From positions 32,001 to 96,000 of the forward strand of contig CAVYSE010000026.1 of assembly GCA_963771075.1 (NCBI GenBank): a stretch of 64,000 bases of DNA. The letters are read 5' to 3'. The position numbers and the translations under genes are program-made. The stretch comes from a candidate division FCPU426 bacterium (lineage in GTDB: Bacteria > Oederibacteriota > Muellerivitia > Muellerivitales > Muellerivitaceae). Every line of letters begins with the position of its first letter. Position 1 is the first letter of the stretch. This document shows, in pieces, positions 37,836-53,512 of the stretch. A model generated the notes under the pieces. It was not told the origin of the DNA, made no database searches, and worked only from the letters and a program-made list of their open reading frames with translations.

Positions 37836-38219
37836 ATGATCTTCTCGAGGAAAAAGCCTGAAAAAAGGGCCTATGCCCGCCACCCGGTCAAGGTGCCCGT
37901 CAAGTTCCGGTCGGGCGCGGACGAACAGGTCTTCCAAACCATGGATGATTGGCGGAGCGCGGAACAAAACGGCTTCACCCTGGACCTGAGCCTGGGGGGC
38001 ATGAGCCTCGTATCGGACCATCCCCTCACGGTGGGGGAAGTCCTGCGTTTTGACGTCTATCTTCTCGACCAGAAAAACAAGGTGAGCCTTTACGCCGCCG
38101 TGCGATGGGTGAACGAAAAGAACGCGGGCATCCGTTTCATATGGGTTCGCCCCAAGGATATGGACGTCCTGAAGGAATTCATCCAAAAATTATCCTCGGC
38201 CCAGGCCGCCCTCGGCTAG
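37836..38219 (+). CDS. PilZ-domain c-di-GMP receptor
   Basis: EKRAYAR (R-x-x-x-R) and DLSLGG (D-x-S-x-x-G). Confidence 0.9.
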   Translation: MIFSRKKPEKRAYARHPVKVPVKFRSGADEQVFQTMDDWRSAEQNGFTLDLSLGGMSLVSDHPLTVGEVLRFDVYLLDQKNKVSLYAAVRWVNEKNAGIRFIWVRPKDMDVLKEFIQKLSSAQAALG

Positions 38220-38225
38220 TTTCTG

Positions 38226-38642
38226 TCAACCGGCCCCATTTTTCCCAGACTGTTTACCTATCCCCTTCACCGGTTTTTTCACCAAGATCTGTTCAATGGT
38301 TTTAACCAGTTTTTTCATGGCCACCGGTTTCTCGAAAAAGGCCTTGATGGAGGGTTCTTCCCGCATCAGCGTTTCCTTGTATTGCCCATAAGCCGAAACG
38401 ACCATAACCGGCAGGTCGGTGTGCAGGCTCAAGTGGGGGATCAGGTCAGTCCCGTTCATGTCGGGAAGCATGAGGTCGGTGAGAACCAGGTCCACCATTT
38501 GGGATCGCAGCGCGAGCAGGGCATCGATGGACTTGTCAAATCCCAAGACCTTGAACCCCGCGGCGTGAAATGATTTCTGGTAAAGCATCAAGAGGCTTCG
38601 GCTGTCTTCGACAACGAGAATCGTACCCTTGGTCTTTTTCAT
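38226..38642 (-). CDS. Single-domain response regulator
   Basis: ILVVEDS, LTDLMLPDMNG, VSAY, FEKP. Confidence 0.9.
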   Translation of the reverse strand: MKKTKGTILVVEDSRSLLMLYQKSFHAAGFKVLGFDKSIDALLALRSQMVDLVLTDLMLPDMNGTDLIPHLSLHTDLPVMVVSAYGQYKETLMREEPSIKAFFEKPVAMKKLVKTIEQILVKKPVKGIGKQSGKNGAG

Positions 38643-39070
38643 GGCGACTTCCTTTCGTGGGCGGTGCCCGAAGCGAAAAGAGAACGTCTTCCATTCAACC
38701 GTATGGCTCATCCATACCCTGGGTCGAACCCGCGGCGCCTGGGGAATAGGACGGGTGGGGCGGGTCCTAGAATTATTTTAACTCGTTTAAGAAAAGCCGG
38801 CCTTGGATATTCGCCGTAATTTTTTTTAGGGAACCCCTGCCGGAATTAAAGCATTTTTTATGCCTCGTTCCCCTTGCCGAATTCATGGCATTGTCCCGAG
38901 TCTTTGGCCGGAATTGGGTGGAAAGCCATGTTTGCCACCTGCCCGAAAACCCCGAATCCGATTAAGATGAAGGTTCGAAAACCCCTGGGAGGACGACCAT
39001 CACCGAGCCTGTTATTTCCCGAAACCCAAGACCCAATCAGGATTTCTTTACACCCTGGACACTGCCCCTG

Positions 39071-40963
39071 GTGTTTTGCTTTGTCCTGGTGGCCCTATTA
39101 GGCATGCGAAAAACCGCGGCTTATGACCTGGGATTTCACCTTAAGGGCGGCCAATGGATCGCGGAACACCACCAGGTGCCCCTCACGGATACCTATACCT
39201 ATAGCGCGCAGGGCAAACCCTATGTGGATTCCCATTGGCTTTACCAGCTCGCCCTTTACGGCCTTTACCGGACAGGGAGTTATGAATCCCTTACCCTGGC
39301 GCATGTTGCCTTGCTCCTGTGTGTTTTTTGCCTGTTGGCCCTCCGTTGCCGGGTTTCCCATGCTCCCGCCTGGGCGACGCCGACTCTCCTGGCAGGGGCG
39401 ATTTTCATCATGGAAAGAAGGTTCATGGAGAGGCCGGAAATCCTTTCCTGGTTATTGCTGGGGGCCACCCTTGGGGTCATGGAAAACCAAGGCCGCCTCG
39501 GTAAAAGGACACTGTGGCTTTTGCCCTTGATCCAACTGTTATGGGTCAATATTGAGGGCCTGTTCGTATTGGGCTGGATCGTCCTGGGAGCCTATTGGGC
39601 GGACGCTTGGTGGGAGCGAAAGAAGCCCGATGCCCGGCTTACCCTTATCCTGGCCCTTTCGATAGGGGCGGATTTAATCAATCCCAATTTCATTTGGGGC
39701 GTCGCCTACCCCTTTTCCTTCATCTCAAAGCTGCAGGGTGACATCTACAACCAAACCGTGATGGAACTGCTTTCCATCCCCGGGTTCCTGTCCAATTCGG
39801 GCTTCGCGAGGGATTCCAAAGGATTCATCTATGTGTTTTTTCTTTATTTTTTGCTGGTAATCCTGTCCCTGGCCCTCCAGAAGAAAAAAGCACCTGAAAT
39901 CCTATTAGCTGCGGCCTTCTTTTATCTTTCCTTTAAGGCGGTGCGCAACATTCCCCTGGCTATGATCGTGACCCTGCCCACCGCCGTCCTGGGTTTGAGG
40001 GAATTGCATGGGAGGTTTGGGGCCTGGTTGGCAAAGGCCCCCTCCCTCGCAAAGGTTAGGGAGGGCATGCCATTTTCCAAGGCGGTTGGATGGGGTATCC
40101 CCTTTTTGGCCGCCTTGTGGATCGGCCTCTGGGGCTCGCGGGTGGCCACCAACGCCTATTACCTCTCCGATGTCCGGCCGGAACAATTCGGTTTGGGGCT
40201 GGATAAGGGTAAACTTCCCGTTGAGGCATCCCTTTACCTCACGCGAGAGGGGCTGGACGGCAAGGTTTTGAACTCGCCGAATTTCGGCGGTTGGCTGGAG
40301 TGGACCCGAAACCTGCCCGTTTATATGGACGGCCGGTGGGAGGTGATGGGGGACGACCTTTACCGCCGTTATCTCGATATGACCTTTTCCAACGGGCAGG
40401 CCATGGGCGGGGTCAGCGCCGAGTTGTTCAACACGAAGGCGGAGATCGTCGTTTTCGATCCCCGGACCGAGTCTTCCTGGATCGCGCAGTTGAAGAACCT
40501 TCCCGCCTGGCGCCTGGTATACCTGGATGATTGCGCCGCCATTTACCTCACCAGGGGCTACCGGGACGATCTGCCTGAACTGGATTGGGACAGGATGGTC
40601 TCATCCAGCGGGCTCCATCCTGTGACCCAGCGGGACCTGGTGGAGGGGATGGGCGGGTTGGGAACGTCCGAATTCGGCTATTGGTTGGAGGGCTTTTACC
40701 GTCCCCGGACATTCCCCTGGGGACTGCTTAACCGAAGCCTTCTTGCCATGGAATATCAAAGGCGGGACGCGCAAATGTCATTGGACCTGGAAATGGTCCG
40801 CCGAACGGATGGTTTTTACCGTCCCTTTTTGGATCTGCTGGTCCAGGATTGTATCGATCAAGGCAACAAGGCGGGAGCCCGGCTGGGGTTACAGCGGATC
40901 CTGATGTTGGACCCGGGCGACGCAAAAGCCCAAAGGGATTTTTATTCGCTTTCATCCCCGTGA
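39071..40963 (+). CDS. Polytopic membrane protein, GT-C glycosyltransferase-like, C-terminal TPR-like tail (start uncertain)
   Basis: DLGFHLKGGQWI, ERPE, LWVNIEG, NFGGWL, YMDGR motifs; many transmembrane segments. Confidence 0.55.
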   Translation: MFCFVLVALLGMRKTAAYDLGFHLKGGQWIAEHHQVPLTDTYTYSAQGKPYVDSHWLYQLALYGLYRTGSYESLTLAHVALLLCVFCLLALRCRVSHAPAWATPTLLAGAIFIMERRFMERPEILSWLLLGATLGVMENQGRLGKRTLWLLPLIQLLWVNIEGLFVLGWIVLGAYWADAWWERKKPDARLTLILALSIGADLINPNFIWGVAYPFSFISKLQGDIYNQTVMELLSIPGFLSNSGFARDSKGFIYVFFLYFLLVILSLALQKKKAPEILLAAAFFYLSFKAVRNIPLAMIVTLPTAVLGLRELHGRFGAWLAKAPSLAKVREGMPFSKAVGWGIPFLAALWIGLWGSRVATNAYYLSDVRPEQFGLGLDKGKLPVEASLYLTREGLDGKVLNSPNFGGWLEWTRNLPVYMDGRWEVMGDDLYRRYLDMTFSNGQAMGGVSAELFNTKAEIVVFDPRTESSWIAQLKNLPAWRLVYLDDCAAIYLTRGYRDDLPELDWDRMVSSSGLHPVTQRDLVEGMGGLGTSEFGYWLEGFYRPRTFPWGLLNRSLLAMEYQRRDAQMSLDLEMVRRTDGFYRPFLDLLVQDCIDQGNKAGARLGLQRILMLDPGDAKAQRDFYSLSSP

Positions 40964-41015
40964 GAAAAGGGGACATCCTAGTAAAGTGTTGAGTGTTGGC
41001 CTGGCCCTAATGTTT

Positions 41016-41030
41016 CCCACCGTGGACAAC
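41016..41030. repeat. Degenerate half copy (A) of the 26-bp island palindrome
   Basis: CCCACCGTGGACAAC resembles the right arm CCCGTCGTGGACAAG. Confidence 0.5.
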
Positions 41031-41065
41031 CTTTCGATTCCAAAAAGTTAAAACATCCGGGTCGA

Positions 41066-41323
41066 TCAGCCGGTCTTCTTCAGTCCCAATTTATGCTCGA
41101 TTTTGCGGACGCGTTCTTCCAGGGTTAAATTTTCCGACATCGAGCGCTTTAAAATCGAGTTCATGAGGGTTTGGTATGGGATTCCTTGTTTTTTCCCCTC
41201 CTCGATAAGCCAATGGTAAACAGTCTCATCCAGCCGGAAGGTTTTCTGAATCTTAGAACCCTTGGAAGCCAAAAGAGGGCCTCTATGAACCTTGGCTTTT
41301 GAAAAATCATATTCTTTTTTCAT
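41066..41323 (-). CDS. brnA: BrnA-family antitoxin
   Basis: MKKEYDFSKA...TFRLD...GIPYQTLMNSIL. Confidence 0.85.
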   Translation of the reverse strand: MKKEYDFSKAKVHRGPLLASKGSKIQKTFRLDETVYHWLIEEGKKQGIPYQTLMNSILKRSMSENLTLEERVRKIEHKLGLKKTG

Positions 41324-41579
41324 AGTTTTCCCGTTCCTTTCTTGTGGCTTTCCTGGCCGAGATGATTCGGATGACATCCATTTCCCGGTACGCGTAAACC
41401 ACCACCAACAGGTTTAATTTCTTTGAATACCCAAGCGCGATGAATCTTTGTTCGTGGTGTTCAATATCTTACAACACCAATTGAACGTCGGATTCCAAGA
41501 CGGATTGGGCCTCTTCAAACGAGACCCCATGTTTTATTAGATTGGAAGCGGCTTTCCGGGGATCCCAAATGACGAGCAT
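41307..41579 (-). pseudogene. brnT: BrnT-family toxin with in-frame TAA at codon 37 (not in ORF track)
   Basis: Hand translation MLVIWDPRKAASNLIKHGVSFEEAQSVL...L*DIEHHEQRFIALG...IRIISARKATRKER; stop at 41469-41471. Confidence 0.85.
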
Positions 41580-41585
41580 GAATCA

Positions 41586-41615
41586 AGTATAAACTACGTT
41601 GTAGTTACATTGCAA
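41586..41615 (-). promoter_or_regulatory. brnTA promoter (TTGCAA-N18-TATACT) with operator palindrome AACTAC-N3-GTAGTT; probably leaderless
   Basis: -10 element ends 6 nt before the toxin ATG; palindrome lies in the promoter spacer. Confidence 0.6.
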
Positions 41616-41627
41616 TGTGTTCTCCCT

Positions 41628-41690
41628 GTCCACGTTGGGTCCCCGCCATGTAGCATGCGCTTGCGCTTAGCTACATGGCCCGTCGTGGAC
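41628..41690. repeat. Island palindrome copy B with an inserted hairpin
   Basis: GTCCACGTTGGGTCCCC [GCCATGTAGC...GCTACATGGC] CCGTCGTGGAC. Confidence 0.8.
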
Positions 41691-41700
41691 GACTTTTTCA

Positions 41701-42012
41701 TCACTCGAAAGCGGAATCATCCAAAAGACGAGACCCATGAATGATCCGAAGAATATAAACCGTTTTTTGGGAGATCCGGAAAATCGTCCTGTAATCCCCA
41801 TACAAGATATGCCGATAGGCCGTCCCTAATACTTCATTTTCCGGAACAGAAGGGCATCTTTCCGGGTAGTGCTCCAAAGTGGTGATTTGTTGTTCTATTC
41901 TAGAGATGAACTTTGCCGCTTCCCGAGAACTGTCCTTGCCAATAAAATCCCAAATTTCCCTCAAATCCCCTTCGGCGGTTCGGGTGATCTTAACCTGGTA
42001 TCGAATGGGCAT
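41701..42012 (-). CDS. RelE/ParE-family toxin
   Basis: YQVKITRTAEGDLREIWDFI...YRTIFRI...VYILRIIHGSR. Confidence 0.9.
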   Translation of the reverse strand: MPIRYQVKITRTAEGDLREIWDFIGKDSSREAAKFISRIEQQITTLEHYPERCPSVPENEVLGTAYRHILYGDYRTIFRISQKTVYILRIIHGSRLLDDSAFE

Positions 42013-42274
42013 GCATGAACTCTTTCAAGAAGGCGCGAACGGGACGCACGCGGTGGGCTGTCACGTCTTTCTCGGCGGAAACAAGTTCGCGGGCAAGATT
42101 CACCGCGCTCAAATAGACTTCATAGGATTTTGAGTTCATCAATACGGCGTCAGCTTTTCCATTTACGGTTAACACAACGGGACGACCGGTCCGGTGGATT
42201 TGGTCCAATAGACTGCGGGTGTTTCGCTTCAAATCGGTCACCGACCGGATGTCCTCGGAAAATTTAATTCCCAT
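41990..42274 (-). CDS. Phd/YefM-family antitoxin
   Basis: IRSVTDLKRN...RPVVLTVNGKADAVL. Confidence 0.9.
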   Translation of the reverse strand: MGIKFSEDIRSVTDLKRNTRSLLDQIHRTGRPVVLTVNGKADAVLMNSKSYEVYLSAVNLARELVSAEKDVTAHRVRPVRAFLKEFMHAHSIPG

Positions 42275-42352
42275 AGCCGCCCCCCTTAGCTTAAGCATCT
42301 AATGTGGTGCTTAATTTAGCATCATTCAACCAAGGCTTCAACCCCTTAGGTA

Positions 42353-42378
42353 GTCCACGATGGGTCCCCGTCGTGGAC
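42353..42378. repeat. Island palindrome copy C (uninterrupted consensus)
   Basis: GTCCACGATGGGTCCCCGTCGTGGAC. Confidence 0.85.
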
Positions 42379-42392
42379 AGCTAAACTTTAGT

Positions 42393-42962
42393 TTATTTGG
42401 CCATTTTTTGTTTGAGCTCGTCGACGAATACTTGAGCTTTTTTATTTCCGTGATTGGCGGCCTTCTGAAACCATTCCATCGCTTCTTGCTCGTCCTTTGA
42501 GACTCCAAGACCCTGGTAATATAAAAGACCTATATTTCCTTCCGCATCAGAGTTTCCTTGGATAGCGGCCATTCGAAAATACTTCAACGCTTCTTGGTAA
42601 TCCTGGGTTGTTCCATGTCCAGTTAAATAAAGACCGCCAAGCGAGTTTTCGGCTTCCGGGTTTCCTTGCGCAGCTGATTTTTGATACCACTCGATGGCTT
42701 TTTGATAATCTTGATTAACCCCTTTTCCGCTTTCATACATGAAGCCAATAGCGTTTTCGGCTCTATCGTCCCCTTGTGTGGCGGCTTTTAGAAACCAATT
42801 CATAGCCTGTTGATGGTCTTGAGCGATCCCATTTCCCCCGGCATAAGCCAAGCCAATATTGAACTGGGCTTTACGGTTCCCCTGATTTGCGGCTTTTAAA
42901 TTCCATTGGAAGGCTTTTACATCATCTTCATGAACTCCATGACCCTTACTGTAAAGACCTGC
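42393..42962 (-). pseudogene. Sel1-repeat protein, 5'-truncated at the RAYT-like element end
   Basis: Sel1 repeats (G-x-GV-x-QD...KA-x-x-W-x-x-KAA-x-QG) continue upstream of the ORF-track start to ~42960, where the element terminus begins. Confidence 0.75.
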
Positions 42963-43037
42963 GAAACAACGGGGTCAAACAACGGGGTCACCTATGAAAA
43001 AGAATGTCCAGGCAAAAGCGTAGTATCACGGCCCCAA

Positions 43038-43180
43038 GTCCAACCTGAGTCTCAAAGGACTACAAGTCAGTCACCTATTCGCGGTTGTTTCACCGCACGA
43101 TAACGTTGGACCCGGCCGCTCAATCAGGCCAAGGACCTCAACTCTTGCGGGTTGTGTCAGACCCCGTCGGAGCTGGCCGG
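43038..43180 (-). ncRNA. Predicted bridge RNA (seekRNA) of the IS110 element
   Basis: Two stem-closed internal loops with guides ACGGGGUC/GGCCUGA (target) and GUUAUC/AUAGGUGA (donor junction). Confidence 0.8.
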
Positions 43181-44179
43181 GCAGTCCTCAAAAGCTTCCT
43201 TCTTTCGTAACATATGAAAGATGCTTTTCAGCATAGCCCTTGCTACTGCTATTCGTCCCGCGTTATTCCCATGCTTCTTCTTCACCCTCGTGTATAAGGT
43301 CCCATACCGTCGGGTTTTGCGAATGGCATGAAGCGAGTTCTCAACCAATATCCAGCGAATCCATTTAGAACCCTGTTTGGTGATGTGGCCGTTGTGGCTT
43401 TTTCCCCCTGATGCGTGAACACTGGGGACCAATCCACCATAAGAACATAGATGTTCCGCGTCCGGGAACCGGCGAATATCCCCAATCTCGCTCAAAATTA
43501 ATAAAGCCGAAAAGGCACCCACGCCTGGCATGGTCATCATCAGCTGGGCTTCCGGGCTTTCTGCTGCCATTTTCTTGATCACCTCTTCTGATTTGGCGAT
43601 CTCTTGGCCTAGTTCCCGGATTACTTCCATATATCCGTCCAGTTCCAAACGGTAGCAAGGCCGGGTACCTACCGTGGCAAGTTCGCGGAAGTTCTTTATT
43701 CCGAATCGGTTTTTAGTAACGGGTTCGATTCCCGCCTTGGTCATGACCGAAGTCATCCGGTTTTTGGCTTGTGTTCTCAATTGCACCAGGGAAGCCCGGT
43801 ACCTAAGGATTTCCCGTAAGTCGCGGATCTCTCGGGGTGGCACATAGGCTCGTGGCAGCAGATCCACCCGCAAAAGTTGAGCCAGGATTCCCGAATCAAT
43901 TTTATCCGTCTTGATCTTGGCCGAGGCTATGGCTTTGACCTTTTGGGGGTGGGCCAATACCAGGTTGGGGAATCGATCCTCGATGAGTTCGTAAAAGTGA
44001 TACCAATGACCTGTGGCTTCTACTACGACCTGGCTACTCACGGGTTGCTTCTTGAAATAAGCCTTTAAAGTATCCGCGTCGTTCTTCAGATCGACTTGTT
44101 CCAGCACCTTTCCTTTCTCATTCACTCTCGTGACGTAGGATGTTTTCTGGTGTAGGTCTACTCCGATATACTGTCCCAC
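43157..44179 (-). CDS. IS110-family DEDD recombinase/transposase
   Basis: IGVDLH, VEATG, KTDKID (DEDD RuvC-like domain); PGVG and HASGGK serine loop. Confidence 0.95.
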   Translation of the reverse strand: MGQYIGVDLHQKTSYVTRVNEKGKVLEQVDLKNDADTLKAYFKKQPVSSQVVVEATGHWYHFYELIEDRFPNLVLAHPQKVKAIASAKIKTDKIDSGILAQLLRVDLLPRAYVPPREIRDLREILRYRASLVQLRTQAKNRMTSVMTKAGIEPVTKNRFGIKNFRELATVGTRPCYRLELDGYMEVIRELGQEIAKSEEVIKKMAAESPEAQLMMTMPGVGAFSALLILSEIGDIRRFPDAEHLCSYGGLVPSVHASGGKSHNGHITKQGSKWIRWILVENSLHAIRKTRRYGTLYTRVKKKHGNNAGRIAVARAMLKSIFHMLRKKEAFEDCPASSDGV

Positions 44180-44421
44180 GGCTGCACCTCCTAAGCGTTT
44201 TGCACCACCTGCAAAGGTGAGTGCCTTTTCGACTCTGGGTTTATCCTAGAGCCTCGTCCCACTTAAGTGGAGACGCTCTACGCTTGGAGCTCTGCAGCCT
44301 TTTTCATGTTATCAGGTCTTAATTTTATATTATCTATCCGCGCTTTGAACCGCGTCTCTCCCTCCATCCGCTTCTTTATTATCGCTATCCGGTTCCCCAC
44401 GGCCGAATATTTTACACCAAA

Positions 44422-45261
44422 TTATTCCGCGATCTCTTTCAGGCCCAGGTGCGCTCTTTTTCGAAGTAGGTACATACCAACGTCCCTCGCCTCGTTGGCC
44501 TTGTGGAACTTAGTCGTGATTTCCTTTTCCTCAACCTTATATGCTTTCGAGACCTTTTGGATAACATCTTCCGCCGTACGTTTCTCGATCCGATGGTGTT
44601 TCATCGGTATTTCCGGGTCTTTCTTATCCAACAACCCCTTTAATTTCTCCTTTAGACCCTCACCCCCGTAATAAACCCCACCCTCCATCTTTTCCCATGG
44701 CGATTCCTTTTTTCGCAACCCTTCCAATACGAACTTCCGATAGGCTCTTTGGGCTTGCTTGGATTGCCTGCCAAATTGCCCCAATACCCAATCCACCTCA
44801 AACCAAGGTTCTTTCTTCTCGATCCCGGCCGTCGCCCGATAGCTGCTCCACTTCCATTTCCGGGGATGTTTCACCAACCGCGCTCTTACCGGGTTCAAGA
44901 CCACATATCGGCACAACTCCAACAAATGGGTTCCCTTTTCCACATGGATCGCCTTATAACGGCCTTGAAAGAGATGCCCTACCCGGTTATTCCGTCGATT
45001 GAATTTCTGGGTATAAACACCATTCAGGTGCCGTATGGCCCGTGACAAGTTGGCTTCCGGCGTCTCCACCAACAAGTGGTAATGATTATCCATCAATACC
45101 CAGGCATGGCACATCACATGATGATCCTCCACGACTTGGGCCAATACCCACAAAAACAATTCCCGGTCCTTATCCGACCGGACAATGTTTTTCCGCTCGT
45201 TCCCCCGCGAGGTAACGTGATAAACAGCGCCTTCATAATGCACTCTTAACGGTCTAGCCAT
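44422..45261 (-). CDS. REP-associated-type tyrosine (Y1/HUH) transposase with DnaA-C-like HTH cut by a premature TAA
   Basis: MARPLR...YHVTSRGN, LMDNHYHLL, GHLFQGRY, RYVVLNPVRA, WSSY; HTH continues past the stop (EIAE*FGVKYSAV...). Confidence 0.88.
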   Translation of the reverse strand: MARPLRVHYEGAVYHVTSRGNERKNIVRSDKDRELFLWVLAQVVEDHHVMCHAWVLMDNHYHLLVETPEANLSRAIRHLNGVYTQKFNRRNNRVGHLFQGRYKAIHVEKGTHLLELCRYVVLNPVRARLVKHPRKWKWSSYRATAGIEKKEPWFEVDWVLGQFGRQSKQAQRAYRKFVLEGLRKKESPWEKMEGGVYYGGEGLKEKLKGLLDKKDPEIPMKHHRIEKRTAEDVIQKVSKAYKVEEKEITTKFHKANEARDVGMYLLRKRAHLGLKEIAE

Positions 45262-45377
45262 TTGCGGATCTTATCACAAAGATAATATAAAATGAAGACC
45301 TGACCCCGTTTCGTGACCCCGTTTCGCAAAATATGGATTCCATCGGCTAGAGAAAGGCATGCCTTTTCTTTAAAAAA

Positions 45378-45704
45378 TTAAACAGTAACCTTCCCACCGT
45401 GTTTAAATTTGAATCCAATCTCTAAATCTCCCCCGCAAGCTGTTGCGATGTTAGAAAGCAACGGTAACGAGGTATCGCGTTGATCTGTGCCACTTTCAAT
45501 TCGAGCAATCGCGCTTTGCGAGGTTTTAATCTTTTTAGCCAGACCCTGTTGACTCAAGCGAGCTCTCAATCGCGCCATTTTAACAATCTGGGCAATTTTA
45601 GATTTGGCTTTATTTTGCTCATAATAAAAACGAACCTCCGGATCTTTAATCAACTCTTTGAAAAAAGAGTCGGCGGATTCGTGGTATTTTTTGTTTGTCT
45701 TCAT
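45378..45704 (-). CDS. HigA-like XRE antitoxin
   Basis: LSQQGLAKKIKTSQSAIARIESG; overlaps the toxin stop. Confidence 0.85.
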   Translation of the reverse strand: MKTNKKYHESADSFFKELIKDPEVRFYYEQNKAKSKIAQIVKMARLRARLSQQGLAKKIKTSQSAIARIESGTDQRDTSLPLLSNIATACGGDLEIGFKFKHGGKVTV

Positions 45705-46033
45705 GGCAAGACCTCTTTCATTCTTTTTTCGGCTAACCAAAGGTCGTTCTTTGGCGTCTTTTGAGTCGTCTTTTTAAAAACGTGTAACCAGATCATAAAA
45801 TTTTTATCAACCAAAACGTAAGCAATCCTGAATCCTCCACTAGGCGCAGAAAACTTTATTTCCCAAAGTTTTCCACTCAAAGATCTAAAGATAACGTCAT
45901 GGCAGTTTAACCCTTTGTCTTTTATCCCTTCATAAACATCTACAAAGCGGGCCTGATTCACTTTGGATAAATCTAAAATATATTCTTTAACGGGTCGGCG
46001 CCCTGATGGGGTTTTGTAATAATCGATTTACAT
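45701..46033 (-). pseudogene. HigB/Gp49-like RelE toxin with TAA at codon 2
   Basis: Hand translation M*IDYYKTPSGRRPVKEYI...GKLWEIK...LHVFKKTTQKTP; stop at 46028-46030. Confidence 0.8.
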
Positions 46034-46039
46034 ATTTAG

Positions 46040-46067
46040 ATTATATCCAGTTGGATATTATTATCAA
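46040..46067 (-). promoter_or_regulatory. higBA promoter TTGATA-N16-TATAAT with operator ATATCCA-GT-TGGATAT; probably leaderless
   Basis: -10 element ends 6 nt before the ATG at 46033; palindrome 46043-46058. Confidence 0.65.
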
Positions 46068-46182
46068 TCCGGAAATTCATCAGGTCCTTGTTATGCTTAA
46101 TGGTTCGATCATTATATTTCGGTAAAGCTACAGGAAAAGGTTCAGAAAGTATTGAGGACCAGGTGCACTACTAAAATGCAGG

Positions 46183-46286
46183 TTTAGGGTTATCCACGAC
46201 CCCCAAAAGGGCCTTGGGGGTCGTCCACGATGGGTCCCCATTCGACGAGCTCATGGCAGGCCGTCGTGGACAAGCCGAACCCTAAA
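46183..46286. repeat. Island palindrome copy D with nested extra hairpins and outer TTTAGGGTT/AACCCTAAA arms
   Basis: GTCCACGATGGGTCCCC [ATTCGACGAGCTCATGGCAGG] CCGTCGTGGAC, preceded by ACGACCCCCAA-N7-TTGGGGGTCGT. Confidence 0.8.
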
Positions 46287-46319
46287 ATATCGAGACTGAT
46301 TTGCGTCATGGTTAGCCTA

Positions 46320-47282
46320 TCATCCCTTTTCGGTGTCAACACCAGATACCTTTACAACCGCCCGCCAAAGGGCGTCCTGATTTGCGCGATCATGAATATG
46401 TTCATGGCGCATGATCTCAATGGGACCTGTCATCTTTTTTGGGGGCGAGCAAAAGAACTTGCCAGAAACATCGACGCCAAACTTTGAGGCCGTGAGGTAT
46501 CTTTTGGCCCCTTCATCGACGGAATGTGACATTCCGGGAATAAGTTTCGAAATCCGCACAAATACGTTCTTCATAACAAAACCTAGATTGCGAGGCGCCA
46601 GGGTATCTGGAGCGGCTCCGGGTGAAACTGCGTATACGGCCAAGTCCGCGGGAAGCTTTCGAGCAAGGGCCGCGGCCCACCACGCGACAAATATTTTAGC
46701 ATCCGAGTAAGCCGTGCTAGCCTTGTATTTTACATTCGGGGAACTGCGCAAAATCGCTTCGATGGCTGAAACCCGGTCGCCTTTGTACTCTTTCGCGGCG
46801 AATGCCGCCAAGCCGGTAAATTGAAACATGGGTACATCACCTCGCGCGGGTTCCGCGCTGGCAATAACGATACGAGCATCCGGCGCCAGACGTCCGGCCT
46901 TTAAAAGGCCCAGGGTCAATTGATGATGACCGATCAGAGGCGCTTGCGACGCTTCAATGTTCTCACTTGTCACAACACGTTCTTTGCCTGGCATCATGCC
47001 AGCGTTCAGAAGGAGAAAATCTATGGGTTCGTCTTGGGCGTCTGGCTTTCCTAGCGAGGCGACCGCCTTCTTCACGCTTGCGAACGAATCCAGGTCGAGG
47101 GCAAGACCGGCGATATTTTTAGTTCCGGCATCGGTTTTTAACCTGCTAACGGCTTCATCCACTTTGGCCTGGCTACGTCCAGTGGCTATCACCTGACTCC
47201 AGCCATCCATGGCAAGCTGCTTGGCCGCCGAGTATCCTAAACCAGACGTAGCGCCGGTAACGAGCGCGACACCCTTTTTCAT
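46320..47282 (-). CDS. Short-chain dehydrogenase/reductase
   Basis: TGATSGLG, LNAG, YSDAK, VSPG. Confidence 0.9.
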   Translation of the reverse strand: MKKGVALVTGATSGLGYSAAKQLAMDGWSQVIATGRSQAKVDEAVSRLKTDAGTKNIAGLALDLDSFASVKKAVASLGKPDAQDEPIDFLLLNAGMMPGKERVVTSENIEASQAPLIGHHQLTLGLLKAGRLAPDARIVIASAEPARGDVPMFQFTGLAAFAAKEYKGDRVSAIEAILRSSPNVKYKASTAYSDAKIFVAWWAAALARKLPADLAVYAVSPGAAPDTLAPRNLGFVMKNVFVRISKLIPGMSHSVDEGAKRYLTASKFGVDVSGKFFCSPPKKMTGPIEIMRHEHIHDRANQDALWRAVVKVSGVDTEKG

Positions 47283-47330
47283 AGTTTGTCTCCTAAGTCT
47301 AAAATTGTGGGAATTTCACAAATCAATTAT

Positions 47331-47390
47331 TGTAGTATACGCTACAGAAAATCCAAACCGCTGTCAAGCGATATTGTTGCGGTTGCTACA
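47331..47390. promoter_or_regulatory. Two TetR-type operators, TGTAGTATACGCTACA and TGTTGCGGTTGCTACA
   Basis: Related 16-bp palindromes between the divergent SDR and tetR genes. Confidence 0.65.
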
Positions 47391-47430
47391 ATAAGATTGT
47401 CCAAAGTTTTTCGTGCGAGTAAAATGGGGC

Positions 47431-48018
47431 ATGAGTCGAAAAATAGAATTTAATTACGCTAATGCGGTGGATCGAGCGATGCGGGTCTTTTGGGGTGAGG
47501 GATACTCCGGCGCATCACTCAGAGACCTTCTCAAGGCGATGAAAATTGGGGAAGGCTCCTTCTACAATGCCGTCAAAAGCAAAAAGAAGCTCTACATCGA
47601 ATGCTTGAATCGATATGGAGAGGTCGAAGGCAATAAAAGAATTTTGGCCCTAACCTCAGCCCCGAATGCGCGTCTCGGACTGCGGGCTATGCTAAGCGCA
47701 ATGTTCGATTGTCTCGATGATCCGAAGAATCCGTCATCTCTTTGCATGATTGCGGCAATGATTTCCGGAGATGTCATGGCTGATAGCGAATTAAAGAAAG
47801 TCGCTATTGCCAGTGTCGATCAAGCTAAAAAGTTAATTGAAGATAAGATTGATGATGACAAAAAAGCTGGACGTCTTCCTAAAAGCTTTGACTCCCATAC
47901 AGTTGCTGGCGTCATAGTTACCTACTATCAAGGCATTTGGCGCATGGCCATGGTTTCATACAAAAGGGAACAGTTCGAGCGCGAATCAGAGGCATTTCTT
48001 CGAGGTTTGGGTCTTTAG
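47431..48018 (+). CDS. TetR-family regulator (NemR/ComR-like)
   Basis: AMRVFWGEGYSGASLRDLLKAMKIGEGSFYNAVKSKKKLY. Confidence 0.9.
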   Translation: MSRKIEFNYANAVDRAMRVFWGEGYSGASLRDLLKAMKIGEGSFYNAVKSKKKLYIECLNRYGEVEGNKRILALTSAPNARLGLRAMLSAMFDCLDDPKNPSSLCMIAAMISGDVMADSELKKVAIASVDQAKKLIEDKIDDDKKAGRLPKSFDSHTVAGVIVTYYQGIWRMAMVSYKREQFERESEAFLRGLGL

Positions 48019-48206
48019 GTTTGGAATTCCTGAATCACACTGATGCTCCAACTTCCAAGTCAGTCAGCAACACTTCGTCTACCGTTTCTTTGAAACGGTA
48101 GCGACCCAATCATGCACCTCGCCTAGTGGGCTCGGCGCAGGACGGGCTTATATAGCCCTTCGTCCGAAGTGAAACAAGAAAATTAGTACTAAAAGTCTTT
48201 TTTCTT

Positions 48207-48232
48207 GTCCACAAAGGGTCCCCGTCGTGGAC
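48207..48232. repeat. Island palindrome copy E
   Basis: GTCCACAAAGGGTCCCCGTCGTGGAC, extended by CTT/AAG arms. Confidence 0.85.
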
Positions 48233-48258
48233 AAGGTAAAACTGAGAATAGTATTATT

Positions 48259-48526
48259 TTAACCTTTTAAACGTCGGGCTCTTTTATTCCAGAAATAAGC
48301 AAAAGTAAATTTATATCCAACAAAGAAGAAGCGCAATCACAAAAGACTTAATCGAAAGAATTTCCTTATTGAAAATAAACACAAGCAAATAAAACAGGAG
48401 AGCAGCCTGTGTCCCGAAAAAAGGTGTGATTTTCAATAAAAGGGCATTATCAATAAATTGATCTTTTGGAGGTCGCATCTTAATTAAAGGCCACCAACCC
48501 CAATCCATGTCGGTAAGATTATTCAT
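48259..48526 (-). pseudogene. Small membrane protein, apparently frameshifted near 48311
   Basis: DWGWWPLIKMRP...; a second frame continues GYKFTFAYFWNKRARRLKG*. Confidence 0.5.
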
Positions 48527-49449
48527 TGAACCGAAAACATCCGGGGAAGGAAGATACCTTCATCCTCGATTTTTGGAACGAGCCGAACGAGATACAACGA
48601 TCTTTCCAACCCTATTACGAAGATTGCACGGTGGATGAACCGGCGGACGCCGACAAGCTTTATGAAGTCCAGGCCAAGCTGAATGACTACCAAATTTATT
48701 TCTTGTCTGAGGTCGAGAATTTCTGCAAAGTTTTTTACAAGAGCAAGACCATGCAGGAAACCCGCGACCATGCCCAATTGAACGCCTTCTTGGACCCGGC
48801 GGTGGAAAGGTTCAGGCAAAAAGAAGAGGAAACCCAAGAAATATTCAAGAAAGACCTAATCAGTTACCTGCGGCTTTATTCCTTCCTCGCCCAAATCATG
48901 CCTTTCCAGGATTCGGATTTGGAAAAGCTTTATGCCTATGGCCGGTTTTTGCTCCTCAAACTTCCCAAACGAACTACCGAACGTTACGCCTTTGGAGATG
49001 AAGTGGCCTTGAAATATTACCGGTTACAAAAGACCATGGAAGGAAGCGTCGCTTTAATCGCCCATGAGGGTGGGATCGTCTATGGGGCGGATGAGGTGGC
49101 TACGGGCCAAGAGAAGAATGAGAAGGTTGAGCTTTCCAAAATAATCGAAATATTGAATGAACGTTTTGGCACTGATTTCAAACCAGCCGACGCCCTTTTC
49201 CTTGAGCAGGTGAAAGAAGATGCGATTGCGAATGAAGAATTGATGAAAGTCGCCCACGCTAATAACGACATCAATAATTTCGGCCTTGTGTTCAAAAAGG
49301 TCTTGGAAGGCTTTTTCGTGGAACGCATGGACCAGAACCAGGAAATCTTTGAGAAGTTTATGGAGAACAACGAATTCCAGAAATTGGTCACGGATTATTT
49401 GATGAAGCAAGTTTATGACGGTATTCGGACAAAAGAAAAAAGTATTTAA
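48526..49449 (+). pseudogene. hsdR: C-terminal fragment of a type I restriction enzyme R subunit
   Basis: Begins mid-motif at LNRKHPGKEDTFILDF...FQPYY; LSKIIEILNERFGTDF; nuclease and most helicase domains absent. Confidence 0.8.
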
Positions 49450-49617
49450 TCGAACTCGAATATTAAAAAGGGGTCGCCATTTTCCACTTTGCGAATAAAT
49501 GAAATCCAAATTGAATCTTTTCGGGTAGTATTTCTATTCGTCTAAATTGAAAGATTAAAACCTATTCGGGCGGGTGTCCTATGCCATTCAAACCAAACCA
49601 GGGATACGGGACACTAC

Positions 49618-51800
49618 CTAAATTCTTTTCAAGCGGAAGAGCGCGCAATGGTAGGCCTCCGGCGAGGAGACGGGCTGGAACGATCGGGGAAGCCAGCCTT
49701 CCTTCATCAGGGTATCGGAATTGAACCTTTTCCCCTCTTCCTTTATCTCATAGTAGGAATCGGGTGCCAGGCCCCGGAGCTTGATCGGTTTCGCCGGGCC
49801 CTCCAAAGCCTTGATCTGGAATATAAAGAGAAGAGCTTCCTTCTGGTCCTGGCTGGTGAACATCCAGGAAGCGCGGGAAGAACCATAGGGCGCCTCCAAA
49901 CGATGGTAGTCACCGAACTGGACGATGGGCCGGATTTCCTTGTAAAGGGCGATATAGCCCGCCAGGTCCTCGCGCTCCCGAACGCTCCACTTGGAAATAT
50001 CCGCTTCCACGCCCATGTTAGCCGACATGGCTAAAAGCGCCCTCCATTTCAGGGGGCTTTCCCTTTTGGCGATATGGCTGGGGGAGGAGCCGATATGGGA
50101 ACCCTGGGTTACGGCGGGATAACCGTAGGTGGTGCCGTATTGGATGAAGAGCCGGTCCAGCCCATCCATGTTGTCCGAGGACCAGATCTGGGGCTGGTAG
50201 CTCAGGATTCCCAGGTCAAAACGGGCGCCTCCTCCCGCGCAACCCTCGAAGAGGGTGTCGGGAAAACGGTGGTTGAAGCGTTCCATCAACTCGTAGACAC
50301 CCAGGCAATAGCGGTGGTAAACCTCGCCCTGGCGGCCGGGGGGAGCGCGGGGCTGCCCGCCTCGGTGAGGGCCCGGTTCATGTCCCATTTCACGTAATCC
50401 ACGCGCCCCTCGTCCAGGACCCGGCTGATGGTCTCGAAGAGATAGTCCCGGACCTCCCCGCGGGACATGTCCAACACCAACTGCCAACGGGCGGTTTTGC
50501 GCTCCCGGTTCGGGACGTGCAGGCACCAATCGGGGTGCTTTTCGTAGAGCTCGCTCACCGGCGAGACCATTTCGGGCTCGATCCAAAGGCCGAACTTGAG
50601 GCCCAAGGCGTGGATCTCCCGGGCCAGACCCTGGATGCCCTGGGGCAATTTACGGGTGTCGGGAAACCAGTCCCCCAAAGAGCCGCTGTCCTTGTCCCTC
50701 TTGCCGAACCAACCGTCGTCCAGAACCATCATCTCGATTCCGGCCTGGACGGCGCTTTGGGCGATCCGCAGGATATCGTCCCGATTGAAATTGAAATAGG
50801 TAGCTTCCCAATTGTTCAAAAGGGTGGGGCGGGTCCGGGCGGCCCAATTACCCCGGCAAACGCGCTCCCGGATGAAGGGATGCAGGGCCTGGCTCAAGGG
50901 CGCGAAGCCCTTCGCCGAATAGGTGGTGACGCATTCGGGCGCGGTGAAGGTTTCCCCCGGCCCCAAGAACCACTTGAAGCCGAAATCGTTCAAGCCCATG
51001 TTCAGCCTCAGCCAGCCCAGGTGATTGACCTCGGCTTCCAACAGCCAGTTGCCGCTATAGGCCAGTTGGAGGCCGTAAACCTCGCCGCTTTCCTCGTCCG
51101 CCCCGCCGCGGACCAACATTACGAAGGGGTTCATGTCATGGGAAGAGATGCCCCGGCGGCTTTCCAAGCGCAGGGTGCCTTGGAGGAGGGGTCGTTCCTG
51201 AAGCGTGCGTTCGCGGGCCCAGGCGCCGCCAAAGCTCACCATGCGGTATTCACCGGAGGGAAGGTCCAAACCCAGGGAAGCGAACTTCAAAACTTGAATG
51301 GATTGGTTCCCAGAATTCCGGATCCTGCTCCTGCGGACGAGGACATTGCGGTGGGGATAGAGGGTGTAGAAAAGGTCGATTTCCAGGCCGGTGGGCTTGT
51401 CGCCCAGGGTGACGCGCAGGGTTTGGGCCTTGTCTTCCGGCTCGGTGCGGGAAGAGGGGAGGCCGGGGAATTCCGGCTTGTGATCGGAGATATCGTGGGA
51501 GAGGTATTGGAATTCGGTGATCCGGGAACCGTCCGCCAATTCCACGATGAAAGCGGGACAGCGCAGGTCGTTATGGCCGAAATCGGCGAATTCCCGCCGA
51601 AGAAGGTCCAGGTTGGCGTTGGGACTGCGGTCTTGAATGGACCGCTCCCATTCCTCCAGCCGTTGATTTTCCTCAGCGTTGGAAAGGATGGCTCCCCAAT
51701 GGAGGTGGCCCAGCCCGCCCAAGGGGTTGACGGCGAGGAGAAGGGTCGAATCCCTTGAGTCCAACCGGAAGGTCTGGGAGGCGGCATTGAATTGGATCAT
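49618..51800 (-). CDS. Alpha-galactosidase GH36, split by a frameshift at the G run 50338-50343
   Basis: NNWEATYF, LDDGWFG, FGLWIEPEM, YVKWDMNR in ORF 50286..51800; FEGCAGGGARFD, WSSDN in ORF 49618..50586. Confidence 0.9.
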
Positions 51801-51904
51801 GAAAACTCCAAGGGAACTTGTTTCGCGGGAGTGAATCCGTATTGTACGAGCTCCCTGATTTTAAGGCGCCCGAGACTTTAAGTTACCAGAAAAGACGGGC
51901 GGAA

Positions 51905-51918
51905 TTAAATCGTTTTAG
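51905..51918. promoter_or_regulatory. Putative LacI operator TTAAATCGTTTTAG
   Basis: Matches sites at 54495 and 59713; central CG. Confidence 0.55.
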
Positions 51919-51971
51919 TTAAATTCGGGTATAATCCTGCCGACTCATTTTATCCGGGGCTGGAGGTATCG

Positions 51972-53276
51972 ATGAAACATCGTTTAGGAATCCTGGCTTG
52001 TTTGAGCTTGTTACTGGCGGCAGGCCTGGCAATGGGGCCGTTCCTGTCGGGCTGCGCCCATAACGGGAATAACCAGGGCGTGGTTCTCACCTGCATGGGT
52101 TGGGGCGGCGTGGAGGAGGCCAAGATCGTCCAGGCCGCGGTGGATGATTTCAAAAAGGCCCACCCCGGTGTCGAGGTCCAGCTCCAAAGGGCGCCCTACG
52201 GGGAATATATCCCCAAACTCCTGACCGAATTCGCCGCTGGGCTCGCCCCCGACGTGATCGCCATCAACGCCGAACAAATGATCACCTTTTCCTCCCGGGG
52301 AGTGTTCACGGACCTGAAGCCGTACGTGGATAAGGATCCGTCCGTTCAATTGACCGACTTTTACCCCGAGTCCATTGACCATTACACGACCGGGGGCATC
52401 CTGACCGCGATCCCGAGGGATATCGCCCCCGTCGCGGTGATCTATTACAACAAGAACATGTTCGACGCGGCGGGACTGCCCTACCCCAAGGACAATTGGA
52501 CCTACGACCAGTTCGCCCTGACCGCGCAGAAACTGACCCAAAAGAATGCCCAAGGCAAGACGGTCCAGTGGGGTTTCGTGGACGACTACCCCACCTGGGA
52601 CGCCTGGGTCTACGCGTTCGGGGGGGGCATGGCGGATAACGAGAAAACACCCACCCGGTGCGTCCTCGACTCGCCGGAGGCCATCGCGGGCGTCCAATTC
52701 CGCGCGGACCTCATTTACAAGTACGGATGTACTCCCGGCCCCAGCGCCTCCACCGCGATGGGAGGATTGGGGTTCTCGGACTATTTCATCAACGGCCAGA
52801 CGGCCATGTTCTACAGCGGTATTTGGTTGACGCCCAAGTTCCGCGAGATCAAGAAGTTCGATTGGGACGTGGTGGAGTTTCCCGTCGGCCCCAACGGCCA
52901 CCGGGGGTTCCCCCTCAGCGCCACGGGGTACGGGATCGTCAAGAACTGCAAGCACCCGGAATTGGCTTATGATTTGGTCAAATACCTGGCGGGGGAAGTC
53001 GGCGAGAAATACATGGCCTCCACCGGTTTGACCCAGCCGGCGATTAAGGCCCTGGCCCAATCCCCGGTTTTCCTGGATGGGCAAACCCCCAAGTCGAAGG
53101 GATTCCTGGTGGACGCGGTAAAGGACGGCCATTTCCAGCCGCTGGACCCCAATGTCAGCGAGTGGAAATCCCACGTGGACGCGGCCCTGGACCGCGTTTG
53201 GAACGGCGAGGAGAAGGCGGACACGGCCTTGAAGAAAGCCGTGGCGGAGATCAACAAAAACTTTTTTAAGAAGTAA
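51972..53276 (+). CDS. Sugar ABC transporter substrate-binding lipoprotein
   Basis: Lipobox LSGC; APDVI, YYNKNMFDAAGLPYP; paralogue of 9871..11160. Confidence 0.9.
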   Translation: MKHRLGILACLSLLLAAGLAMGPFLSGCAHNGNNQGVVLTCMGWGGVEEAKIVQAAVDDFKKAHPGVEVQLQRAPYGEYIPKLLTEFAAGLAPDVIAINAEQMITFSSRGVFTDLKPYVDKDPSVQLTDFYPESIDHYTTGGILTAIPRDIAPVAVIYYNKNMFDAAGLPYPKDNWTYDQFALTAQKLTQKNAQGKTVQWGFVDDYPTWDAWVYAFGGGMADNEKTPTRCVLDSPEAIAGVQFRADLIYKYGCTPGPSASTAMGGLGFSDYFINGQTAMFYSGIWLTPKFREIKKFDWDVVEFPVGPNGHRGFPLSATGYGIVKNCKHPELAYDLVKYLAGEVGEKYMASTGLTQPAIKALAQSPVFLDGQTPKSKGFLVDAVKDGHFQPLDPNVSEWKSHVDAALDRVWNGEEKADTALKKAVAEINKNFFKK

Positions 53277-53448
53277 CTCGACTTTGGCAATTCTGCGGAT
53301 TACAGCCTGTTTCCCCCTCTGAAAGAGGGGGAACAAGGGGGAGTTAGCCTTTTAGTCCATGTTAGCAACGGCTAATACCCCCCTGCCCCCCTTTTTCAAA
53401 GGGGGAAGATAGTCCGCGACTAGCTTTTTGGAATTTGCCAAAGTTGAG
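53277..53448. repeat. REPIN/MITE-like nested palindromic element
   Basis: Outer IR CTCGACTTTGGCAA / TTGCCAAAGTTGAG around CCCCCTCTGAAAGAGGGGG and CCCCCTTTTTCAAAGGGGG hairpins. Confidence 0.65.
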
Positions 53449-53457
53449 AAGTGACAT

Positions 53458-53498
53458 AAAAAGACCCCGGCTCTCGAATGGCCGAGGTCTTTTTTTTA
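53458..53498. terminator. Bidirectional intrinsic terminator
   Basis: AAAAAGACCCCGGC-N7-GCCGAGGTCTTTTTTTT between convergent genes. Confidence 0.8.
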
Positions 53499-53512
53499 CA
53501 GGGTATTTTGGA

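Follow-up and report, generated by a model that had tools for sequence, protein, structure and literature searches.

Gene cassette arrays with a 28-bp inverted-arm site suggest a possible serine-recombinase counterpart of the integron in uncultured soil and bog bacteria

INTRODUCTION

To our knowledge, integrons are the only described route by which bacteria file single genes into arrays through site-specific recombination; the process relies on a single enzyme family and on sites that fold as single strands. Here, we analyze gene cassette arrays in a bacterium of candidate division FCPU426, starting from a 64,000-nucleotide stretch of its genome (positions 32,001 to 96,000 of contig CAVYSE010000026.1, assembly GCA_963771075.1), hereafter called the window, in which unrelated gene modules alternate with copies of one short palindrome. 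A short serine recombinase gene found beside the same palindrome on another contig is the candidate enzyme. Positions are window coordinates unless a contig of the assembly (C-numbers) is given; G000 denotes the present genome and other G-numbers its relatives.

RESULTS

One palindrome separates unrelated gene modules in the window

Between positions 41015 and 48233, five copies of one palindrome lie between unrelated gene modules, two of them intact, two split by insertions, and one reduced to a decayed half (Table 1). An earlier note on this DNA, made from the sequence, had described the palindrome as a 26-mer, and searching the window with it gave matches at 42353-42378 (0 mismatches) and 48207-48232 (2 mismatches), with 0 expected by chance. 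The left 17-mer is also present at 41628 and 46223 (6 matches in all where 0.44 are expected, including 2 that come from reading palindromic copies in reverse), and the right 10-mer occurs exactly at 41681, 42369, 46262, and 48223. The stretches 41627-41691 and 46222-46272 thus represent one site each, both broken after GGGTCCCC, by 37 and ~23 inserted bases, respectively. All five copies share one orientation, and each lies downstream of a minus-strand stop codon in the open reading frame (ORF) map. These results bear out the note, which had placed co-oriented copies at 41016 (half), 41628, 42353, 46223, and 48207, behind minus-strand stop codons, and had seen none elsewhere in the window. 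Indeed, a profile search of the remainder returned no other convincing copy, the only two matches having E-values of 1.2 (~37545) and 9.1 (~31144).

The modules named in the note (BrnA/BrnT, ParE/Phd, Sel1, a Gp49/HigB-like toxin with a helix-turn-helix [HTH] protein, and SDR with TetR) were all recognized by Pfam. They form four cassettes in an array that carries no recombinase gene and looks old and decaying, since two of its five sites are split and one is a half-site, brnT is broken by an in-frame TAA at 41466-41468 (its BrnT_toxin matches fall in two pieces), and sel1 is truncated by nested mobile elements. The array sits in a block whose right end holds a small membrane ORF, with its stop codon 78 nt from the last site, and a 307-residue ORF that matched no Pfam family; no bounding site was found at this end.

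Some further features were noted in and near the array. The nested insertion in cassette 3 is bounded by inverted, doubled repeats of the type CGAAAC(A)ACGGGGTCA, and genes combining Y1 and DnaA_C domains like the one it carries number ~17 in the genome. Immediately left of the second split site, at 46190-46222, an arm-like stretch (TATCCACGAC) is followed by a hairpin with a 9-bp stem (GACCCCCAA...TTGGGGGTC). To the right of the array, a GH36 alpha-galactosidase gene is split into overlapping ORFs at 49618-50586 and 50286-51800, probably by a frameshift or a sequencing error.

Table 1. Positions of the array features in the window and of related elements elsewhere in the genome
Feature	Position	Strand	Evidence and remarks
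Decayed right half-site, TC-CCACCGTGGACA	41015..41028	+	Sequence; left end of array, adjoins 3' end of core 630-residue membrane protein gene
Cassette 1: brnA 41066-41377, brnT 41307-41582	41066..41582	-	Pfam BrnA_antitoxin, BrnT_toxin; ORF map
Split site, 37-bp palindromic insertion (41645-41681) after GGG-TC-CCC	41627..41691	+	Sequence
Cassette 2: parE toxin 41701-42012, phd/yefM antitoxin 41990-42298	41701..42298	-	Pfam
Intact 28-bp site, aGTCCACGATGGG-TC-CCCGTCGTGGACA	42352..42379	+	Profile 36.6 bits, E 1.5e-8
Cassette 3, composite: sel1, nested insertion, higA-like HTH, Gp49/HigB-like toxin	42393..46027	-	Pfam, ORFs
sel1-repeat gene of cassette 3	42393-42974	-	Pfam; 5'-truncated
Nested insertion of cassette 3	~42975-45330		IS110-family transposase gene 43157-44179; Y1_Tnp + DnaA_C gene 44422-45261
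higA-like HTH and Gp49/HigB-like toxin of cassette 3	45378-45740; 45701-46027	-	Pfam
Split site, unique ~23-bp insertion (46240-46261)	46222..46272	+	Sequence; broken at same position as 41627..41691
Cassette 4: SDR oxidoreductase 46320-47282 (-), divergent TetR regulator 47413-48018 (+)	46320..48018		Pfam
Intact site, variant left arm, TGTCCACAAAGGG-TC-CCCGTCGTGGACA	48206..48233	+	Profile 35.0 bits
Right end of inserted block	48311..49807		Membrane ORF 48311-48526 (-); 307-residue ORF 48526-49449 (+)
37-bp insert copies	window 41645-41681; C26:134343, 135909, 136838, 130165; C5:98233, 102509, 104244; C11:133963; C3:148677, 149276, 347218; C20:37114
Full group II intron copies	C5:78018, 82587, 87687; C2:54787; C3:153047, 173318; C6:161584; C9:14155; C21:9645
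Serine recombinase gene	C8:80002-80835		277 residues
5'-truncated recombinase gene copies	C8:42188-42733; C6:158407-158922; C28:107693-107974		92-99% identity

The site consists of two inverted 13-bp arms around a central TC

Alignment of 49 clean copies from the genome extended the motif from 26 to 28 bp and gave the consensus TGTCCACGAYGGG-TC-CCCRTCGTGGACA, in a 13-2-13 layout. The outermost bases are T at position 0 in 44 copies and A at position 27 in 43, and the site ends in TGTCCAC/GTGGACA. Inverted symmetry reaches the central TC, where the GGG/CCC positions 10-12 and 15-17 are paired in 44, 48, and 49 of the 49 copies. The note had taken a T.G asymmetry in the stem as a sign of single-strand recognition, a reading that does not hold in the alignment, as positions 9 and 18 vary freely (TA 14, TG 15, CG 7, CA 5, AG 5, other 3).

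Deviations from the consensus were then counted in 148 unique sites from the genome and its relatives. One-sided arm deviations numbered 331 against 18 two-sided ones, of which 6 restore pairing, and the left arm carries three times the deviations of the right (1.87 versus 0.61 per site). All 13 positions pair in 19 of the 148 sites, and 9 or fewer pair in 23. Judged from these sequences, such one-sided change is expected of two half-sites bound by protein in duplex DNA rather than of a hairpin selected for its structure. With an integron integrase found in none of the 31 family genomes and no compensatory arm changes, the site is not an attC hairpin. Similarly, an Rfam scan of 38000-52000 at E-values up to 1 gave only a chance tmRNA fragment (13.6 bits), and no known RNA family therefore covers the site. 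With respect to the GC skew of the flanks, the TC strand is on the C-rich strand in most multi-site arrays, with at least three exceptions (C4 at 72 kb, C9, and C12).

Sites are clustered in the genome and found across one family

A profile search of the assembly (4.39 Mb in 28 contigs) gave 133 places at E-values up to 10. Among the 82 strong sites, defined by a profile score of 18 bits or more, 74 fall in 15 clusters that are co-oriented in all but 2 cases, the other 8 being singletons. The sites are thus arranged in arrays and not scattered genome-wide, the distinction on which the note had proposed to check its cassette reading. Of 24 further genomes belonging to this GTDB family, 17 contain the 26-mer with up to 2 mismatches (reversed control, 0); the count was 0 of 16 for genomes from other families of the phylum. 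With the 18-nt right half and up to 1 mismatch, matches extended to 29 of 31 family genomes, with 1 match for the reversed control. When public genomes were scanned for exact matches, 51 loci were obtained, and nearly all of these belong to metagenome-assembled genomes labelled as uncultured (proteo)bacteria. The family with these arrays consists of uncultured soil and bog bacteria.

Cassettes change context at the sites

In G001, a genome of the same genus, the flanks of the array are syntenic with window 37850-40921 and 49808-53993 (68-84% identity), and the flanking genes are separated by just 1.3 kb, which contains an unrelated membrane-protein gene and no site. The 8.9-kb block is therefore an indel. 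Copies of the brnTA, parE-phd, and SDR-tetR cassettes, 84-89% identical, were found in five relatives, on other contigs, in other arrays, and in other genera, with homology that begins and ends at sites; core flanks are, by comparison, ~73-75% identical to those of genomes other than G001. Specifically, copies of cassette 1 (87-88% identical, homology starting at 41021) lie between sites in G004 and G020, copies of cassette 2 (84-89%, homology from 41679/41681 to 42380/42383) in other arrays of G001 and G003, and copies of cassette 4 (87-89%) on other contigs of G004, which belongs to another genus, G002, and G001. The variant left arm of the last site travels with cassette 4, since it also follows the G004 copy, where the sequence is 96% identical to 48158-48234 and diverges beyond the site.

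To extend this comparison, 231 unique site-to-site units were assembled from the present genome and from fetched loci of relatives. Their median length is 786 bp, the longest ORF runs opposite to the TC reading in 214 of them, and the median distance from stop codon to site is 18.5 nt. After removal of pairs due to a group II intron and to one duplicated region, 26 homologous pairs of units were found in unrelated contexts (ungapped flank identity 0.08-0.47). In the best pair (96.4% identity over 1619 bp), the inner arms are identical, including a rare left-arm variant, and the outer arms have 3+3 mismatches. Across the 26 pairs, which are not independent, mismatches in outer versus inner arms numbered 125 versus 77 for left arms and 38 versus 30 for right arms; outer arms thus differ more than inner ones, which suggests that the exchange occurs inside the site. 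Breakpoints between genomes thus coincide with the site, both for the window cassettes and for the cassette pairs, as the note had anticipated for a cassette system.

The cargo was examined in 105 canonical-strand ORFs of the present genome outside the window. No Pfam family was matched at 1e-5 by 53 of them, ~28 are toxin-antitoxin parts, and the remainder include GNAT, RibD_C, AraC, and aldo-keto reductase genes. Taken together, these data leave little doubt that the array is made of cassettes, and the window array shows that arrays come and go between congeners and that cassettes travel between genera.

Other elements target the site

The 37-bp palindromic insert that splits one site of the window was found at the identical position in 13 sites with different arms, and BLAST located it nowhere outside sites in the genome (Table 1). 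It consists of a nearly invariant 35-bp palindrome, GCCATGTAGC...GCTACATGGC, plus CC, and follows GGG-TC-CCC. The insert has the appearance of a very small element directed at the site core, and it should inactivate the site; the split site at 41627-41691 is accordingly probably inactive for crossover. An interpretation of the insert as a pair of hybrid sites does not fit, as there is no second TC center.

A 1984-bp group II intron with RVT_1 and GIIM domains, matched by Rfam RF02003 and RF00029 above their gathering scores, lies directly after the site. The genome holds 9 full copies (99.75-100% identity) and 4 partial ones, none in the window, and most copies have the intron after the site when read in the direction of the cassette genes. 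Near the end of contig C26, a cassette with its sites is duplicated in inverted orientation (C26:138322-139276 and 142766-143720); the duplication flanks two inverted partial intron ends and is either a rearrangement or an assembly artifact.

A short serine recombinase gene lies beside the sites

A single Resolvase-domain gene was found in the genome, on C8, together with three 5'-truncated copies (Table 1). Its 277-residue product contains the Resolvase-type catalytic domain PF00239 (5.4e-22) followed by the recombinase domain PF07508, after which it ends; the zinc-ribbon domain PF13408 was not found by Pfam. The serine/arginine motif of the catalytic domain is conserved, with residues Y16, R18, S20, and S21 invariant across 35 aligned sequences. 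The nearest sequence relatives are large serine integrases (47-58% identity), and the best fold matches of a model of the protein (pLDDT 79) were the integrases of SPbeta, Bxb1, and phiC31 and, from the LI integrase-DNA complex, the recombinase domain. In PMC3783163, a half-site of 25 bp is covered jointly by the recombinase domain and the zinc ribbon, the latter taking up positions 16-24; a recombinase devoid of zinc ribbon would fit a 13-bp arm.

A site follows the recombinase stop codon by 19-20 nt in all four genome copies. Considering strong sites, one lies within 2 kb of 4/4 copies and within 100 bp of 3/4, the C28 copy having a weak site 27 nt after it. When read in the direction of the recombinase gene, this linked site shows GGG-TC-CCC, opposite to the cassette genes. 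The four copies have one common diverged left arm, TGTTCCTTTTGGG, three different right arms, and unrelated downstream DNA; given a constant left arm and a varying right arm, the left arm seems to belong to the recombinase gene and the exchange would take place at the center. None of the 8 Phage_integrase-family genes is within 2 kb, or within 100 bp, of a strong site, and of the 20 Y1_Tnp genes, 3 are within 2 kb and 0 within 100 bp. The short serine recombinase is thus the only recombinase gene found beside the sites, and it is encoded on a contig other than that of the window, which fits the option, raised in the note, of a recombinase encoded elsewhere. A trio of consecutive tyrosine recombinase genes (C5:132275-135002), ~34 kb from the C5 array, is unlinked to sites.

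Orthologues with 73% identity or more were found in 6 other genomes of the family, 4 of them intact and 2 as fragments. A site in the same place and orientation is clear in G044, G024, G004, G021, and G046 and partial in G020. An array lies downstream of the intact recombinase gene, and the cassette genes converge on it. Within the phylum, short orthologues were found in 7 of the 31 family genomes versus 0 of 68 genomes of other families, in which relatives were full-length only (510 residues or more); the short form is kept in 19 protein clusters (275-283 residues, 68% identity or more). The neighbors of the intact gene include ArdC-like and DUF2958 genes, and its contig has 48.5% GC, compared to ~54% for the genome; on account of these neighbors and the low GC content the gene may ride on a plasmid or an integrative and conjugative element (ICE). 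In G000 (C8:80838-80855), G044, G021, and G046, a conserved 15-bp palindrome (GTCAGTAnTACTGAC or TCAGTAGTACTGA) is located in the interval from the recombinase stop codon to the left arm of the site and may act as a terminator or provide an accessory binding site.

In the window, the left end of the array gave a weak gapped alignment, suggestive only, with the region after the recombinase stop codon, and no remnant of the recombinase gene was detected by tblastn.

DISCUSSION

The results obtained here indicate that the 28-bp site is likely a double-stranded crossover site, on which the 277-residue serine recombinase would act from another contig. In the mechanism we propose, a recombinase dimer would bind the two 13-bp arms through its recombinase domain and both strands would be cut at the central TC, which would set polarity because it is not its own complement. 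By recombining, two sites in direct orientation would free a cassette as a one-site circle, and such a circle could enter any site of an array. Because the zinc ribbon and coiled coil that provide one-way control in large serine integrases are missing, the enzyme is expected to be bidirectional and to act in trans on arrays throughout the chromosome.

Several observations weigh against this proposal. Recombinase orthologues were found in just 7 of the 31 family genomes (5 intact, 2 fragments) versus 29 for the sites, and genomes rich in sites in which none was found include G008 (46 right-half matches, 98% complete), G041 (39), G002 (36), and G003 (29, 99% complete). The gene may often be missed in metagenome bins, given its plasmid- or ICE-type neighbors and low-GC contig, which is an excuse and not evidence. 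Moreover, the 28 bp also accommodate an 11-6-11 layout, as in tyrosine-recombinase sites, and the comparison of inner and outer arms points in the right direction but with a modest effect from non-independent pairs. Finally, 14 of the 16 public sequencing runs listed contain part of the stretch, and four runs from four studies, which yielded short contigs only, showed no joints and so give no evidence on excision either way; loose contig ends at sites in these data show only that the site occurs in other contexts.

The main rival is accordingly a tyrosine recombinase acting in trans, in which case the cassettes would be mobile but exchanged by another enzyme (e.g., a housekeeping Xer-type recombinase with an 11-6-11 site), the serine recombinase being a passenger or having a narrower role. 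The wide spread of sites relative to the recombinase gene would suit this explanation, as would a 28-bp site with inverted arms and an asymmetric center, and Xer-dependent dif modules with toxin-antitoxin cargo exist on Acinetobacter plasmids. However, Phage_integrase-family genes were consistently away from strong sites, the symmetry that extends here (GGG/CCC) as far as the central 2 bp is a typical feature of sites used by serine recombinases, and the present sites are direct repeats where dif modules alternate. This explanation also leaves the linkage of an inverted-orientation serine recombinase gene with a hybrid site in 7 genomes unaccounted for, and we regard it as unlikely.

Less probable still is that the palindrome is a functional element of each module, terminator-like or protein-binding, and that slow shuffling occurs by homologous recombination between the 28-bp repeats. 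The short distance of the site from stop codons agrees with such a role, arrays are also maintained in genomes that yielded no short recombinase, and a group II intron homes next to the site. On the other hand, the flanks of the 49 clean copies contain no T-run after the site, and many left arms are unable to pair, without compensation. Homologous exchange, for its part, would not predict strict co-orientation, precise boundaries across genera, or a hybrid site fixed behind the recombinase gene.

The mechanism put forward in the earlier note, in which hairpins would be recognized as single-stranded DNA by a HUH/Y1 transposase, fared worse than its description of the locus. Its view of a cassette array that is not an integron stood, in light of the clustering, the breakpoints, and the absence of IntI. 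The site is indeed a short palindrome, and Y1_Tnp matches number 20 in the genome, with one lying within the window array, so that repetitive extragenic palindrome (REP)-like hairpins spread by a REP-associated tyrosine transposase (RAYT) had some appeal. Nonetheless, the Y1 genes are rarely near strong sites and never within 100 bp, the one in the window belongs to a separate insertion bounded by inverted repeats, and the sites are clustered rather than dispersed and show no structural covariation (331 versus 18 changes), making this explanation very improbable. We can hardly credit a degenerate integron, or an attC-site cluster devoid of integrase (CALIN), with shrunken attC sites: the array logic, cassette size, and toxin-antitoxin-rich cargo do resemble sedentary chromosomal integrons, but no IntI (TIGR02249) passed the cut-off of 265 bits in the present genome (best, 41.8 bits) or in any of the 31 family genomes (best, 84.5 bits), the 28-bp sequence-conserved site has no RYYYAAC/GTTRRRY boxes, and the cassette genes point towards the recombinase gene instead of away from it.

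Returning to the serine recombinase, the balance of the genomic evidence tips slightly toward a serine-recombinase counterpart of the integron, in which the 277-residue enzyme would move single-gene cassettes at a 28-bp duplex site, in trans, among a dozen or more arrays per chromosome and throughout the family. The system works like an integron yet shows neither of the two defining features, IntI and attC. If this proposal is correct, gene-cassette capture evolved more than once, and the present arrays would be a second, independent invention. It would also explain how accessory genes are organized in a poorly known soil lineage, imply cassette pools that are invisible to integron-finding software, and provide a very compact, bidirectional recombinase-site pair, perhaps useful for genome engineering. 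Full-text literature searches, supplements being outside their scope, returned no description of cassette arrays run by a serine recombinase; passages of 10.1101/2024.07.02.601686 concern ordinary integrons.

Comparison with known systems

Among known systems, REP/RAYT elements share with the present sites the form of short intergenic palindromes in many copies. The sites described here differ from them in being clustered in arrays, without structural covariation and without linkage to Y1 genes. The dif modules of Acinetobacter plasmids also have 28-bp sites that bound small modules, often with toxin-antitoxin genes. These dif-like sites alternate in orientation and are served by the host XerC/XerD, while the present sites are direct repeats whose symmetry extends to the central 2 bp and which have a serine recombinase gene linked to them.

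Among serine recombinase systems, staphylococcal cassette chromosome (SCC) elements such as SCCmec, moved by Ccr serine recombinases, stack in tandem at one chromosomal site, and some lack a recombinase of their own. They resemble the present arrays, in the reading proposed here, as tandem elements driven by a serine recombinase, some of them enzyme-less, but SCC elements measure tens of kb, use full-length large serine recombinases, and share one attB in rlmH, in contrast with single-gene cassettes in arrays at a dozen or more loci. At the level of the site, there is a likeness to small serine recombinases, since res site I of Tn3/gamma-delta and the hix/gix sites of invertases are ~26-28 bp long, with two inverted arms around an asymmetric 2-bp crossover dinucleotide that sets polarity. 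No accessory sites or enhancer are evident here, and a recombinase domain like that of the large family takes the place of a small helix-turn-helix domain as DNA-binding module. At the level of the protein, the catalytic and recombinase domains and the best fold matches point to the large serine integrases (SPbeta, Bxb1, phiC31, and Listeria LI/A118). Compared to these, the present protein ends after the recombinase domain, with neither zinc ribbon nor coiled coil, and would therefore have no device for attP/attB asymmetry or directionality; its sites measure 28 bp versus 40-50 bp, and it is proposed to serve cassette arrays and not a phage or ICE.

Integrons are close to the present arrays in organization. 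They differ in their IntI tyrosine recombinase, where the candidate enzyme here is a serine recombinase, and in the folded attC, which spans 57-141 nt between RYYYAAC...GTTRRRY boxes and conserves structure while its sequence varies, where the present system has 28-bp sequence-conserved duplex half-sites. The cassette genes also converge on the recombinase gene, and there is therefore no Pc-type promoter logic. With integrons and CALINs, the arrays nevertheless have in common co-oriented, mostly single-gene cassettes of ~0.5-1.5 kb with the recombination site just after the stop codon, a cargo rich in toxin-antitoxin genes and genes of no known function, cassettes common to different arrays and genera, and many enzyme-less arrays per genome.

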